A stretch of 64,000 nt of DNA from Candidatus Aenigmatarchaeota archaeon (GTDB lineage: Archaea > Aenigmatarchaeota > Aenigmatarchaeia > PWEA01 > JACQIF01): the NCBI GenBank assembly GCA_016432325.1, contig CP066684.1, forward strand, positions 64,001-128,000, in the 5' to 3' direction. The first letter of the stretch is position 1, and every line of letters begins with the position of its first letter. Below are positions 38,884 to 64,000 of this stretch, piece by piece. Below the pieces are notes generated by a model. It saw only the letters and a list, made by a program, of their open reading frames with translations, was not told where the DNA came from and did no database searches. The position numbers were made by a program, and so were the translations under genes.

Positions 38884-39657
38884 TTACTTCTTGCCTTTCT
38901 TCTCGGTCTTGACGCCTTCCACGATGCGCGCCAGTTCGCGCACGTTGTCCGTCAGCGCCGGCAGGAAGTCCTTGAACGCGCGTTCCACAGAACTGACGCG
39001 TCCTTCCAACGACTGCAAAGATTCGCTGGTTTCGGTCAACAGCGTCTTCATCTCCGCCTTCTCCGTGTCTTGATTATCCATCATCTCGTTGAGCTTCCCT
39101 TCCAGAGAGTCCATCCTCTCCATCGATGCGCCGTAGAGGCGGTCCAGTTCCGCGAGATGCGCTTCGACGTCTTTCCACTTCTCGTTGATTACCTCTTCGA
39201 TAAGCTCTTCGAGAGCGACCTCCTCGTGCGCTGTCATTTCGACAACGCCTGCGCCTGACGGAAGCTCCTCGAGCTCTCTGGGATACTGTTCCTGAGGCAT
39301 CTGTATGCCGAAATCGTCAGGAGGCGTCTGCGCCTGCGGCGCGGGCGGTGGCAGAGGCCCTTGCGGAGGAGCAGGCATCCTCTGCATCTGTAGAGGAGGA
39401 CCCTGAACGCGCGGCATTGGAGGAGGGGAAGGCATGCGCAGTGCTTGCTGAGGCGGCGCCACGGGTTGCTGAATAGCGGGCTGCGGCGCAACGTCGCCGC
39501 CGACGGTGAACTTCAAGACGCGGTTTAGCGCCTTCGCAACCTGTTCGTTGGAAAATCCTTGTGACCGTAAGGTCGTTATTATCTCGCGCTCGCTGCGGCC
39601 TTCAGACGCGAGTCTCTGGACCTCTTCGACCGGCACACGCTCTTCCTGCTGTTCCAT
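38884..39657 (-). CDS. coiled-coil protein with Pro/Gln linker, probable pilus accessory
   Basis: 257-aa ORF adjacent to the pilus locus; EELIEEVINEKW. Confidence 0.75.
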   Translation of the reverse strand: MEQQEERVPVEEVQRLASEGRSEREIITTLRSQGFSNEQVAKALNRVLKFTVGGDVAPQPAIQQPVAPPQQALRMPSPPPMPRVQGPPLQMQRMPAPPQGPLPPPAPQAQTPPDDFGIQMPQEQYPRELEELPSGAGVVEMTAHEEVALEELIEEVINEKWKDVEAHLAELDRLYGASMERMDSLEGKLNEMMDNQDTEKAEMKTLLTETSESLQSLEGRVSSVERAFKDFLPALTDNVRELARIVEGVKTEKKGKK

Positions 39658-39783
39658 TTACTGGTCCCTCCTCGCCTTTCCGAGTGTACGAGACTGCGGT
39701 CTCGACATGTTCGGCCGAGGGCCGAACTTTTCGAACCGCTGTTCGAAAATGTCGAAACTTTGTTTCGTACACGGTAAATCCAT
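39658..39783 (-). repeat. multibranch gene-start element
   Basis: TAAATGGA duplicated; four nested hairpins; 41-aa uORF ends in TAA abutting the ATG. Confidence 0.85.
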
Positions 39784-39787
39784 TTAA

Positions 39788-40186
39788 TCACTTTTTCGGT
39801 TTGGGACGGTCGGCCAACTCTTCCCTTACAATCGCTTTTACCTCTGTTTGCGTCGCATAGTGGGTGCGCAGGGGGCTGAGCAGGTCTATGTAGCTCTTGA
39901 ATTCCTCGAGATCCGAGCGAAGCGAGACCTTGTTCAAGAACTTCTTCGTGTTGGATACCTCTGTTTCCAGTTTCAAAATCTTGGTATTTAAATCTTCCAG
40001 AGCCTGCTCGAGCGCGCCGGCGCGCGTGCGCATCTCCTCGGTTCGCTTGAGGGAGGTGGTCTCGACGCTCATCTGTTTGGCTTCCATGCTGCGCGCAATC
40101 TCCTCGAGGTTGCGTATGCGGCGCATAGCCTCCTGCAGGACGCGGACGACTTCCCCAAAAGCCTCTTCGGCCGTGCGGGCGGCCAT
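39788..40186 (-). CDS. coiled-coil protein, probable pilus accessory
   Basis: 132-aa heptad-rich ORF; strong SD. Confidence 0.75.
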   Translation of the reverse strand: MAARTAEEAFGEVVRVLQEAMRRIRNLEEIARSMEAKQMSVETTSLKRTEEMRTRAGALEQALEDLNTKILKLETEVSNTKKFLNKVSLRSDLEEFKSYIDLLSPLRTHYATQTEVKAIVREELADRPKPKK

Positions 40187-55130: not shown

Positions 55131-55200
55131 ATGCCTGAAATTTCCGAAACAAGTTTCGTCATTCCAGCCATGGGAGGTTTGAGATATGCCTGAAATCCCC
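55131..55200 (+). repeat. gene-start element at psmA, 67/70 identical to 60374-60443
   Basis: ATGCCTGAAAT duplicated at both ends. Confidence 0.92.
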
Positions 55201-57493: not shown

Positions 57494-58264
57494 ATGAGCG
57501 AAGAACACAAGAAGATTATTGTTGGAGACAGAAGGCCCGACGGCCGCGCACTCGACGAGATGAGACCCATAACAGCCAAGGCGGGCGTGATTTCGCGCGC
57601 CAACGGCTCCGCGCATTTCGCCATGGGCAGTACCGTCGCAATCGCCGCGGCATACGGCCCGCGCGAGCTGCACCCCAAACACCTGCAGGACCCGGTCCGT
57701 GCGTATCTCAAGTACGTCTACGCCATGGCGCCGTTCTCCACGCAAGATCGCGTAAAGCCCGGCCCGTCAAGACGCTCGACTGAGATAAGCGAAGTCTCTC
57801 GACAGGCGTTCAACTCCGTGATATTCCTGGAGGAGTTCCCCAAGGCAGGGATTGAAGTCTTCGTCGAGATACTGCAGGCCAACGCCTCGACGCGATGCGC
57901 AGGAATAAACGCCGCGTCAATCGCGCTCGCCGACGCAGGCGTGCCGATGACCGATCTCGTATCCTCCTGCGCCGCAGGCAAGGTCGACGGAAAGATAATC
58001 CTGGACGTCGCGGGAGAGGAAGACACGGAAGGAGAAGTGGACATGCCGATAGCGTACATACCCCGCAAGGACGAGATCGCGCTGCTCCAGATGGACGGCC
58101 TGCTGACTCTCGACGAGTTTAAGGAGGCGCTTGAACTGGCGAAGAAAGGCTGCATGCAGATACACGAAAAGCAGGTGGCCGCGCTGAAGGAGCGCTACGT
58201 GCGCGTCGCCTCTGAGATAGCGAAGAAGGGGCCTGTGCGCGAGAGCGCAGAAGAGGTGGCTTAA
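57494..58264 (+). CDS. rrp41: exosome exonuclease Rrp41
   Basis: RPDGR, YGPRE, PSRRSTEIS. Confidence 0.96.
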   Translation: MSEEHKKIIVGDRRPDGRALDEMRPITAKAGVISRANGSAHFAMGSTVAIAAAYGPRELHPKHLQDPVRAYLKYVYAMAPFSTQDRVKPGPSRRSTEISEVSRQAFNSVIFLEEFPKAGIEVFVEILQANASTRCAGINAASIALADAGVPMTDLVSSCAAGKVDGKIILDVAGEEDTEGEVDMPIAYIPRKDEIALLQMDGLLTLDEFKEALELAKKGCMQIHEKQVAALKERYVRVASEIAKKGPVRESAEEVA

Positions 58265-58320
58265 ATGATAACCAAAATCTTGAAACTCTGTTTCAAATTT
58301 TCGTACCAGAGGTGGATGAT
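58265..58320 (+). repeat. gene-start hairpin element before rrp42
   Basis: ATGATAAC(C/G)AAAATC duplicated (14/15); TTGAAAC-TCT-GTTTCAA. Confidence 0.88.
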
Positions 58321-59109
58321 ATGATAACGAAAATCGACAAGGAATTCATAAAAACGCTCGCCCGCGAAGGCAAGCGCGAAGACGGCCGCGCGTTCGACCA
58401 GTTCCGCGACCTGAAAATCGAGACGGGCTTCGCCAAGAACGCAGAAGGCTCGGCGCTCGTGACTCTCGGAGAAACGCGCGTGCTCGCAGGCGTGAAGCTT
58501 TCGGTCGGAACGCCGTTCGCCGACACGGCGAACGAGGGCGTGCTGATGGTGAACGCAGAGCTTGGCCCGAAGGCTTCGCCTGAATTCGAGACAGGCCCTC
58601 CGAAAGAAGGAGCCATCGAACTGGCCCGCGTCATAGACCGCGGCATCCGCGAATCGAAGTGCATCGATCTGGAAGCGCTTTGCATCACGCCGAAGGAAAA
58701 GGTCTGGATGGTGTCGGTGGATATAGACCCGATAAACGACGGCGGGAACATACTGGACGCCGCAGGCATAGCCGCGATTGCCGCACTGCACGACGTCAAG
58801 ATACCGAAACTCGACGAGGATGTAAGACCAATATTCGGCACGAACTCGGGAAAGCTCAAGCTGCGTCACATACCGATACCCGTCACGACATTCAAGGTCA
58901 ACGGGGCGCTCGTGATGGACCCTGACTTCGAGGAAGAAGCGTCTGCCGAGGCGCGTCTGACCGTGACGAGCGTCGAGGGTTTCCTCTGCGCGATGCAGAA
59001 GGGCGGCGAGAGCAACTTCAAGACAGAAGAGGTAGTGCGTGCCGCAGAGACGGCGTACGCCAAGGCGACGGAACTGCGTGAAGTCGTAAAACAGGCCGTC
59101 GGCCTTTGA
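58321..59109 (+). CDS. rrp42: exosome subunit Rrp42
   Basis: REDGR, AEGSALV, ELARVIDRGIRES. Confidence 0.96.
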   Translation: MITKIDKEFIKTLAREGKREDGRAFDQFRDLKIETGFAKNAEGSALVTLGETRVLAGVKLSVGTPFADTANEGVLMVNAELGPKASPEFETGPPKEGAIELARVIDRGIRESKCIDLEALCITPKEKVWMVSVDIDPINDGGNILDAAGIAAIAALHDVKIPKLDEDVRPIFGTNSGKLKLRHIPIPVTTFKVNGALVMDPDFEEEASAEARLTVTSVEGFLCAMQKGGESNFKTEEVVRAAETAYAKATELREVVKQAVGL

Positions 59110-60373: not shown

Positions 60374-60443
60374 ATGCCAGAAATTTCCGAAACAAGTTTC
60401 GTCATTCCAGCCATGGGAGGTTTGAGACATGCCTGAAATTCCC
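60374..60443 (+). repeat. gene-start element at pfdB, 67/70 identical to 55131-55200
   Basis: direct sequence comparison. Confidence 0.92.
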
Positions 60444-62170: not shown

Positions 62171-63178
62171 TTAGTCGTGCACGAGAGGCGCAATCTTGCG
62201 CGGTTCAAAGCCGTTGCCGTTGGTGGTGTCCTTGTGTCTAATTTCCACCCACCCCGCGACGCGCTCGGCAATAGCATCTGGAGTGAAGCCGGCCTTGCGG
62301 TACAGGTCTTTCGGCGAGCCGGTCTCCCCCTTCTCGGCCCCTATTCTGCGCATGTGGGTCGGATACCTCTCCGAAAGCACGTCAGATACACTGCTCCCCA
62401 GCCCGCCGTCTATGCTGTGGTCTTCTGCTGTTACGACAAGACCGGTCTTCCTTGCATACTGTTCGATAAGCAAAGAGTCTATCGGTTTTATGGACGAGAT
62501 GTTTATCACCGCCGCACTCACGCCAGATCCCTCCAGCAGTGCTGCGGCTCCCAGCGACGGTTCTATCAGCGCCCCATAGCTCATTATCGCTACGTCGTCG
62601 CCGTCGCGAAGCACCTCGCCCTTTCCTATAGACCATTCCCAGTTGTCGTCGTGCAACGTCAATACTTCTGCGCGGGTCATGCTCATCGTCGCGGGTCCCG
62701 CGTATTTCGGGTCTTTTACGTTTGCGAGTTTGACTGTCATCTGTTTCGCTTCAACCCAGTCCGCCGGGCATAACACGGTGTCCGAGATCGCCTTGTTGTA
62801 TGATAGATAGTTGAGAACCTGGTTGCTCACGCCGTCTTGTCCGACCTGCAAGCCGACATGGCTGCCTACCTTGCAGACGTTGAGCTTCGCGCGCCTGACT
62901 ATCTGTTCGAACGGTTCGGCGGCGAGTTTGGAGAATCCCTCGAAGGTGGCGTAATAGACGCGTTCGCCTGTACGATGCGCCGCACCAGCCGCCATTGTGA
63001 CGCTGTCCTGTTCCGCTATGCCCGCATCAACGATGCGCCGCGGGTACTGTGCAGCGAAGTCCGCGAGGGACATGGAATTGCCAAGGTCCGATACGTAAAC
63101 GCGGATATTGTGCGTCTTGGCCGCTTCCACAGCGCCCCGACCGAGGCCGCTTCTCATCGATTCGTGCTGGCCCTTCAT
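62171..63178 (-). CDS. transketolase C-terminal (pyrimidine-binding/C) subunit
   Basis: GIAEQ, GQDGVSNQ, SIKPID, AEDHSIDGGLG. Confidence 0.93.
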   Translation of the reverse strand: MKGQHESMRSGLGRGAVEAAKTHNIRVYVSDLGNSMSLADFAAQYPRRIVDAGIAEQDSVTMAAGAAHRTGERVYYATFEGFSKLAAEPFEQIVRRAKLNVCKVGSHVGLQVGQDGVSNQVLNYLSYNKAISDTVLCPADWVEAKQMTVKLANVKDPKYAGPATMSMTRAEVLTLHDDNWEWSIGKGEVLRDGDDVAIMSYGALIEPSLGAAALLEGSGVSAAVINISSIKPIDSLLIEQYARKTGLVVTAEDHSIDGGLGSSVSDVLSERYPTHMRRIGAEKGETGSPKDLYRKAGFTPDAIAERVAGWVEIRHKDTTNGNGFEPRKIAPLVHD

Positions 63179-63372
63179 GCGCGACTCCCTCCTTCTCCGC
63201 GCTGCACGGGAACCGCAGTCCCCGGCATTTTCGAACAGCGGTTCGAAACTTTACGAATAGCTATTCGTAAACTTGCGACCGCGTCGCAAGAGTTCGACCG
63301 AAGGCCGAACATGTCGGGAAGCTCCACTTCCCGTACAGGGAAGGATGAAACCGCGTGTTTCGTGCCCTTCAT
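63179..63372 (-). repeat. 194-bp multibranch element between the transketolase subunit genes
   Basis: ATGAAGGGC 9-bp direct repeat; seven hairpins; shares modules with the 39658 element. Confidence 0.9.
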
Positions 63373-64000
63373 AGTATCCCCTTGTTGACAAGCCGCCTGC
63401 GGAACTTCTCCTTACCGATATTGGTTTCTATCATGGCCTCTTCCATCTCCCTGTCGTCCAGACAGCGGCCGTGATATTTCGCGCCGCCCTTCTGCATGAA
63501 TCTGACGCCGCTTCCTTTGATCGTATTGGCGACTATTGCTTTCGGTCCTTTCTCGCGCACCCACGCCCAATCCAGCGCGTGCTTTATCTCGCCGTAGTTA
63601 TGGCCGTTTATCTGCATAGTCCTCCAGCCGAATGAGTCGAGTTTCATGTCCAACGGCTCCATATCCTTCGTGCGCCGCGTGAAGTCATCGTTCTGCGCTC
63701 CGTTCTTGTCTACCCATAGAATCGTTTCGAGCTTGTAGTGCGCGGCTGTCGCGACGGCTTCCCACACCTGTCCCTCATTCATCTCGCCATCTCCGACGAT
63801 TGCGATGACGTGCGGTCTCTTCATGGGATTTTTGATTTCGTCGCGCAGAGTGTGCTCAATGCCGTTCGCGAACGAAAGACCCTTGCCCAGACTGCCCGAC
63901 GGGAACTCGACTCCGGGCGTGGTCGTGTCGGCGTGGCCCGGCAATCCCCCGAGGGTGCGGAATGTAGGAAGAGAGCCATAGGGAATGTATCCCTGATGCG
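63369..64000 (-). CDS. transketolase N-terminal (TPP-binding) subunit, 5' partial
   Basis: LPGH, SGSLGKG, GDGEMNEGQVWEA, TIKG; frame stays open to the window end. Confidence 0.93.
   Translation of the reverse strand, partial: HQGYIPYGSLPTFRTLGGLPGHADTTTPGVEFPSGSLGKGLSFANGIEHTLRDEIKNPMKRPHVIAIVGDGEMNEGQVWEAVATAAHYKLETILWVDKNGAQNDDFTRRTKDMEPLDMKLDSFGWRTMQINGHNYGEIKHALDWAWVREKGPKAIVANTIKGSGVRFMQKGGAKYHGRCLDDREMEEAMIETNIGKEKFRRRLVNKGIL

Follow-up and report, generated by a model that had tools for sequence, protein, structure and literature searches.

Among described repeat DNAs, the systems closest to the one reported here are the Rickettsia palindromic elements (RPEs), reportedly described by Ogata et al. 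in 2000, the MITEs (miniature inverted-repeat transposable elements), which include the Correia/NEMIS elements of Neisseria, and the GC clusters or double-hairpin elements of fungal mitochondria, very small mobile DNA which nests in itself and occupies intergenic, intronic and coding positions. In the fungal elements we know of neither systematic copying of gene starts nor open reading frames (ORFs) that relay ribosomes between genes. Here we describe a 194-nucleotide (nt) insert of palindromic repeat DNA which lies between the genes for the two transketolase subunits of a Candidatus Aenigmatarchaeota archaeon (assembly GCA_016432325.1, contig CP066684.1), in the 64,000-nt stretch that was analysed (positions 64,001 to 128,000 of the contig, hereafter the window), and which carries a 65-codon bridging or 'decoy' ORF.

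A second body of work that bears on this locus concerns termination-reinitiation at ATGA overlaps, which has been described for direct gene pairs only (PMC6728339; PMC10666635). In Haloferax and E. coli, reinitiation needs the overlap and is almost lost at gaps of ~20 nt, and gene overlaps are enriched among the subunits of heteromeric complexes (PMC10666635; PMC6728339). Reduced genomes with more than 90% coding density offer almost no safe landing sites for selfish DNA, and the insert described here occupies the least forgiving of sites, the 4-nt stop/start overlap between the subunits of one enzyme, while leaving the genes whole and formally still coupled. The reading that we favour, with some reserve, is that the 194-nt period reflects the insertion, in two layers, of palindromic repeat DNA peculiar to this lineage into the transketolase ATGA overlap, and that the ORF is a by-product which would relay ribosomes from one subunit to the other.

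Results

Two nested layers in a stop/start overlap

The host is a groundwater archaeon whose genome is a single contig of 874,869 bp with an archaeal 16S gene. Its commonest gene junction is the 4-nt ATGA-type overlap, with 209 cases against a background of 30–40 at neighbouring offsets. The transketolase genes have the composition of a split pair, a Transketolase_N gene followed by a gene with Transket_pyr and Transketolase_C domains (Pfam). Between them the 9-nt word ATGAAGGGC stands twice in direct orientation with a period of 194 nt, exactly at the positions where an earlier annotation made from the DNA letters (the sequence-only reading) had placed it. The frame of the N-terminal subunit terminates in ...GGGATACTATGA, and its TGA (63369-63371) overlaps the first ATG of the insert; the 65-codon ORF that opens there ends in a TGA which overlaps the ATG of the C-terminal subunit, the decoy stop lying at +1. 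The ATGA overlaps claimed for both ends of the ORF were thus both seen, and each of the seven stems that had been named was located. The parts are as follows, in window coordinates:

63369..64000, minus strand: gene for the transketolase N-terminal subunit, from the ORF list (Pfam Transketolase_N, 2.6e-19), which continues beyond the window end to genome position 128376

63364..63372, minus strand: upstream start copy X1, ATGAAGGGC, with the first ATG of the decoy ORF in ATGA overlap with the N-subunit stop

63175..63372, minus strand: bridging ('decoy') ORF of 65 codons, with an ATGA overlap at both ends

63347..63361, minus strand: hairpin hp0, GAAAC-ACGCG-GTTTC, of the (ATG)AAAC..GTTTC(AT) type that forms the core of small cassettes

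63339..63346, minus strand: anti-X or anti-Shine-Dalgarno (anti-SD) word ATCCTTCC, which complements GAAGG of the start copies and of the Shine-Dalgarno (SD) linker

63202..63338, minus strand: nested branched palindrome of 137 nt (the 'dumbbell' frame), from fold and half-frame searches

63332-63338, minus strand: dumbbell piece CTGTACG

63317-63331, minus strand: dumbbell hairpin A, GGAAG/CTTCC

63310-63316, minus strand: dumbbell piece CGACATG

63293-63309, 63272-63290, 63250-63271 and 63229-63248, minus strand: four inner hairpins

63223-63228, minus strand: dumbbell piece ATGCCG

63209-63222, minus strand: dumbbell hairpin B, GGGAC/GTTCC

63202-63208, minus strand: dumbbell piece CGTGCAG

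63179..63201, minus strand: 23-nt linker with the SD sequence of the C subunit, GGAGGGAG, at 63185-63192

63170..63178, minus strand: downstream start copy X2, ATGAAGGGC, the real C-subunit start (ATG 63176-63178)

62171..63178, minus strand: gene for the transketolase C-terminal subunit, 335 aa, from the ORF list (Pfam Transket_pyr and Transketolase_C)

The insert consists of two layers. The outer one is a small start-copying cassette, in the order X1, GAAAC/GTTTC hairpin, inverted start copy CCTTCC, SD linker and X2, and the inner one is the dumbbell palindrome, which sits between the inverted start copy and the SD linker. Together with the inner hairpins this gives a nesting of three levels, the largest example that we have; the claim that it is the 'largest copy' holds for the repeat period among the clear cassettes of the census described below. 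Both transketolase genes are intact, since the upstream copy supplies the stop of the one and the downstream copy the start of the other. The outer arms 63180-63195 and 63340-63355 are 75% complementary, and 63202-63212 and 63328-63338 are 91% complementary; the outer arms do not abut the direct repeats, and their sequence is not conserved between copies. Since an independent Logan assembly (SRR12113430) holds an identical insert, it is not an artefact of one assembly. Another Logan contig with the exact C subunit breaks within the insert, at CGTGCAG.

As had been predicted, removal of one repeat together with the insert restores the overlap exactly and leaves an ATGA-coupled pair. The same exactness would be expected if the insert were an intron of the archaeal bulge-helix-bulge type, or of another type, which is cut from the mRNA to restore the pair, and related modules do lie inside tRNA introns of the genus. 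We regard such RNA-level removal as very improbable: a scan for the bulge-helix-bulge motif (two 3-nt bulges and a 4-bp helix) gave 4 matches against 2.5 expected in shuffles, none of them at the repeat boundaries, for the central helix the 9-mer offers no self-complementary 4-mer, and the reading frame has been kept open, which would be needless if the insert were spliced.

Both layers recur in the genome

Both layers are found elsewhere in this genome. The dumbbell family has the frame GTACG-hairpin-CGACATG...ATGYCG-hairpin-CGTAC, in which the hairpin stems covary, and the transketolase copy belongs to it: its right half is an exact match (GTACG GGAAG..CTTCC CGACAT) and its left half differs by two transitions (GCACG, CGGCAT). 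Half-frames of the form GTACG-hairpin-CGACAT occur 27 times in the genome with 21 different 5-nt stems; their pairing amounts to 94%, compared with 60% after the 3' arms have been shuffled between copies, and scrambled control words gave only 1–3 hairpins. These half-frames make up ~19 loci, whose central palindrome, CGACATGTCG, is either free of hairpins or occupied by two or four of them. Repeats of at least 8 nt flank 6 of the 19 dumbbell loci, compared with ~11% of control positions. The inner hairpins of the insert are shared with the copies at genome positions 103686, 441668 and 664150, and one of them, with its ATG, is identical over 23 of 23 nt to window 39729-39751. With modules common to ~19 other loci and an outer layer that aligns with another cassette, the insert is element-derived, as the sequence-only reading had proposed.

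Among the genomes searched and the matches listed, frames with hairpin arms occur in this genus only. The full frame with hairpin arms has three exact copies here and one in a relative of the same genus (G001), and it is absent from the other 199 of the 201 genomes of the class that were searched. Among the 80 listed matches to the pattern in a search with one genome per GTDB species, hairpin arms were present in the G001 record only, and the other listed matches look like chance. A tRNA intron of G001 holds a dumbbell where this genome has other hairpins.

Several further copies deserve mention in their own right. A second framed copy, at window 39653-39790 (genome 103653-103790), is crossed by a 41-codon ORF which starts 4 nt after the upstream TGA and whose TAA directly precedes the real ATG; its repeat, TAAATGGA, includes the start codon. 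The half-frame at genome 739099-739150 lies within an 803-codon ORF and is apparently read through in frame. The 5' end of a tRNA, GCCTCGGTG, is duplicated around the dumbbell copy at genome 784442-784551, which adjoins a tyrosine recombinase gene (782962-784149), and the 3' end of a tRNA, GGTCCACCA, is duplicated on either side of two homologous three-hairpin arrays (genome 830053/830148 and 641110/641201) whose stems differ by compensatory changes. A separate family consists of four-hairpin elements of ~95 nt between co-directional genes (genome 13806, 273202, 370006, 448811 and 607609), with conserved stems, variable loops and TTTAAA-like bounding words.

The outer layer, for its part, has the build of the small cassettes. 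It keeps their order of parts and a decoy frame that ends at the real start, and its period, once the dumbbell core is removed, is 57 nt, compared with 53–60 nt in other cassettes. Over its full length it can be aligned with the cassette at genome 297986-298049, with a score of 75 (null 13.5 ± 5.7), a score that is inflated by the family-wide hairpin and by internal repeats; the independent agreement between the two amounts to 5 of the 6 bases after the ATG, which may be due to chance. The difference between these start copies, G/T, is mirrored as C/A in the inverted copy. Hairpins of the (ATG)AAAC..GTTTC(AT) type number ~49 in the genome, and the perfect form ATGAAAC..GTTTCAT occurs 9 times here against 0–1 in 60 other genomes of the class. 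A word complementary to the 5 nt that follow the hairpin was found upstream in 7 cases, downstream in 10 and on both sides in 4, compared with 1.9, 3.6 and 0.3 after permutation. The cassettes lie at unrelated genes, at tRNA ends and in introns, and their flanking repeats measure 9 nt here and 8, 9, 10, 11, 14, 18 and ~28 nt at other copies.

Start copy and inverted copy change together from one cassette to the next, as GAAGG/CCTTC here, GAAGT/ACTTC at genome 297986, and GTAAAT/ATTTAC, GTAGAT/ATCTAC and GTAAGT/ACTTAC elsewhere. With the real start included, this covariation is three-way, and it would suit an RNA switch that serves the host, in which the inverted copy changes its pairing partner between the decoy start and the region of the real start and SD, sets the N:C ratio according to upstream translation, and is retained because it is useful; alternative pairings are indeed visible in the predicted fold of the insert. 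We nevertheless hold such a switch to be improbable, since the cassettes are scattered over sites as unrelated as those listed above, G001 does without them at three orthologous junctions (see below), and a process that copies its target in both orientations explains the covariation equally well. Nor does Rfam offer a corresponding family, no match having reached the gathering score anywhere in the 64-kb window.

Copying of native gene starts

The three junctions lie in the window and have orthologues in G001 that are free of cassettes:

58252-58335: small cassette at rrp41/rrp42

55131-55200: small cassette at the proteasome alpha gene

60374-60443: small cassette at the prefoldin beta gene

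The decoy ORFs of these cassettes have 19–20 codons. At all three cassette-free junctions G001 has the same first codons (MITK and M(A/P)EIP). Because G001 keeps these codons in the absence of cassettes, the repeated start word is native gene sequence that has been copied, not sequence brought in, and the comparison indicates that the family inserts at gene starts and copies them. In the cassette at prefoldin beta, the decoy ATG follows TATAAATAGCTG by 17 nt, exactly the position that the real ATG has in G001; here the upstream copy holds the ancestral position of initiation and the real start has been displaced downstream. The transketolase junction is organised likewise, with the upstream copy in possession of the ancestral ATGA overlap.

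We also considered whether the 9-mer is borne by the cassette instead of derived from the target, as the cassette at 297986 has ATGAAGTGC in the corresponding place. This is less likely because the agreement covers 5 of 6 positions after the ATG, and ~0.4 such pairs are expected among the cassettes; because start words differ widely between cassettes; and because of the first codons which G001 retains at the three junctions.

For the transketolase site itself, the predicted empty junction consists of the end of the N subunit joined directly to ATGAAGGGCCAGCAC. As no relative holds this locus, insertion here is argued from the family, and we take it that the transketolase start would have been copied in the same way. 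A comparison with the transketolase loci of relatives, which had been proposed with the sequence-only reading, was borne out in part: in the relative G006 only 1 nt separates the two subunit genes, the normal arrangement, and both subunits found here are 34–35% identical to that adjacent pair (35% for the N subunit), but an orthologous empty site did not emerge, and insertion at this site is thus deduced and not seen. The best protein relatives of the C subunit are only 41% identical, and its alignment with other C subunits begins at residue 7.

A translational relay or an inert frame

For the 65-codon ORF neither a homologue by word-index search nor a Pfam family was found, and an exhaustive HMMER search against 1.84 billion representatives returned 4 weak matches (E-values of 1e-8 to 1e-3, none at or below 1e-10), all of them to long tandem-repeat proteins aligned in 3–6 stretches. 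The ORF does have an SD-like AAGGGGA upstream of its start and stays open for 65 codons, as a genuine small protein would; its sequence, however, is the translation of palindromic modules which are common to non-coding loci, and with no credible homologue in any of these searches, as the sequence-only reading had anticipated, we give hardly any credence to a protein gene. We read the ORF as a by-product, the translation of repeat modules. An antisense ORF of 183 codons (window 62837-63388, plus strand) which crosses the C-subunit start and the insert is probably spurious and kept open by the stop-poor palindromes.

A by-product could still be translated. Ribosomes that finish the N subunit would restart at the overlapping decoy ATG, their passage through the hairpins would melt the stem that holds the real SD, and on terminating at the second ATGA they would begin anew on the C subunit. 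In this way the two subunits would continue to be made in a coupled manner despite an insertion which would otherwise abolish coupling: from two ATGA overlaps chained through a translated spacer we infer that coupling may be kept where a 194-nt gap would destroy it.

The predicted fold is compatible with such a role. Folding, which had been suggested as a check, gave −103.8 kcal/mol for 63150-63400 (minus strand), with z = −4.2 and none of 200 shuffles folding as well. In the best fold the GAAAC/GTTTC hairpin is replaced, its 3' arm pairing with the SD linker, so that six of the seven hairpins can form simultaneously. According to the thermodynamic model the real C-subunit SD has a mean unpaired probability of 0.20, its partner at 63338-63355 being codons 6–12 of the ORF, and the anti-SD word ATCCTTCC is predicted to be 98% paired.

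In order to place the decoy frame in a genome-wide context, an unbiased census was made of start-containing repeats of at least 8 nt which lie at a distance of 25–270 nt, enclose a hairpin and are followed by an ORF of at least 100 codons, and it yielded 95 candidates. The first stop of the decoy frame fell within −12 to +8 nt of the real start in 16 of the 95, whereas the two other frames, which served as controls, gave 2 and 3 (Fisher p = 4e-5), and the upstream gene stops 0–18 nt from the decoy start in 8 of the 12 clear cassettes.

The main rival to a relay is a neutral insertion of selfish or junk DNA, in which the frame is open and phased by chance, the C subunit is translated from its own SD and the ORF is inert. 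We consider this unlikely, though by no means negligible. The census excess of decoy frames ending at the real start (16 vs 2–3 of 95) speaks against it, as do the SD, which is predicted to be 80% paired with sequence inside the ORF, and the fact that both junctions are exact ATGA overlaps, the dominant overlap type of the genome. Several observations favour it, and these weigh at the same time against the reading that we prefer. The decoy frame is open in 16% of dinucleotide shuffles, which with a one-in-three chance of the right phase leaves ~5% for an open, phased frame. Hairpin arrays are in general depleted of stops: stop triplets make up 3.5% of them, against 5.0–5.3%, and 40% are open in all six frames, against 15–18% of controls, so that open frames come cheaply. 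The C subunit has a strong GGAGGG 8 nt upstream of its ATG, and its AUG is 85% unpaired in the thermodynamic model (unpaired probability 0.85), from which it follows that the subunit could be initiated independently. Across the hairpins of the genome, G:U pairs are not in excess over A:C mismatches on the sense strand, and without such a strand-specific wobble bias there is no sign that the RNA fold itself is under selection.

Other points count against the favoured reading as well. A flanking direct repeat of at least 9 nt is met by chance at ~3.5% of control positions. The empty transketolase site was not found in any relative: in the 40 that were searched, matches to the C subunit reached at most 35% identity, with only a 23% paralogue-like match in G001, and a single-protein scan of GTDB contigs for the locus found nothing. 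In G001 the contig with synteny around the neighbouring HAD-like gene stops short of the transketolase locus, within the neighbouring gene. An interval of ~1.6 kb (G001:C1 319-1913), which separates the HAD-like gene from its neighbour in G001, has no counterpart here.

A further point against it is that no mobilising enzyme was found. The genome holds no Y1 transposase, TnpB, reverse transcriptase, Cas1 or multicopy insertion sequence (IS), other DDE families not having been searched one by one, and PF01797 (RAYT, Y1) has no match in it, while control genomes do match. A fixed staggered cut would account neither for repeats that vary in length from 8 to 28 nt nor for the added inverted copy. 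Two tyrosine recombinases are encoded, one of them beside another dumbbell copy, and nothing links either to the cassettes.

On this evidence we regard the ORF as a plausible translational relay with about an even chance of being one.

Two further features of the genome may be recorded here. A two-copy gene of ~270 aa (genome 618754-619560, minus strand, and ~810430-811248, plus strand) shows 86.6% nucleotide identity over 597 nt, and a five-hairpin array marks the exact point where the homology ends; the gene fell into no family of Pfam or NCBIfam, and its Atlas neighbours are hypothetical Nanobdellota proteins. The 16S rRNA gene (genome 637095-639272) is ~2,180 nt long, against the 1,478 positions of the archaeal model, and probably carries one or more introns or inserts.

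Discussion

If the relay is true, the two-layer insertion that we favour would reveal a new form of tolerance towards mobile DNA, and the locus would offer a natural setting in which to test the rule that termination-reinitiation depends on overlaps. The nested build of cassette, dumbbell and inner hairpins, together with the variable target copies, points to an undescribed insertion process. A wider proposal, which we make only tentatively, is that these elements form an undescribed class of archaeal hairpin cassettes, made by a process that copies the start of the target once directly and once inverted, the element thereby building its own relay ORF or RNA switch and being tolerated in coupled or leaderless starts without silencing them, so that it would be rendered harmless in translation and not through splicing. 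For annotation, it is likely that such ORFs, and N- or C-terminal 'extensions' that run through hairpin arrays, are called as genes in DPANN genomes. We found no published description of this family in the literature on palindromic repeats of Aenigmarchaeota or on MITEs of DPANN archaea.

Taken as a whole, the element works like RPEs and like repeats of the MITE/Correia type, and it fails those MITE and REPIN tests that could be run. Like RPEs, it is a short palindromic repeat that spreads in a reduced genome and is tolerated in expressed sequence by staying open, the sense frame being open across the whole insert. RPEs, however, are bacterial and lie in frame inside proteins, they do not duplicate gene starts, and they have neither nested, covarying hairpin modules nor a separate ORF between two genes. 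With MITEs the insert shares small size, non-autonomous inverted-repeat DNA, flanking direct repeats, a position between co-transcribed genes and the formation of a long hairpin in the mRNA. MITEs, in contrast, end in defined terminal inverted repeats, duplicate a fixed length of target and have a transposase related to them, whereas in the present family the repeats vary from 8 to ~28 nt, the target is also copied in inverted orientation, and stems covary between fixed junction words; no related autonomous element or transposase appeared in the searches for Y1, TnpB and multicopy IS. Repetitive extragenic palindromic (REP) sequences and REPINs are likewise hairpin repeats, often paired and scattered at gene ends, but REPINs depend on a Y1 (RAYT) transposase, and this genome has no such partner. 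The GC clusters of fungal mitochondria come close as very small, self-nesting double-hairpin DNA, and differ in belonging to organelle genomes.

The remaining comparison is with ATGA-mediated termination-reinitiation (PMC6728339; PMC10666635). Both junctions of the insert are classic 4-nt overlaps, and the genes that they serve encode subunits of one enzyme, the class of genes in which such overlaps are enriched; what sets this locus apart is that a meaningless ORF of 65 codons, itself repeat DNA, links two such overlaps in a chain.

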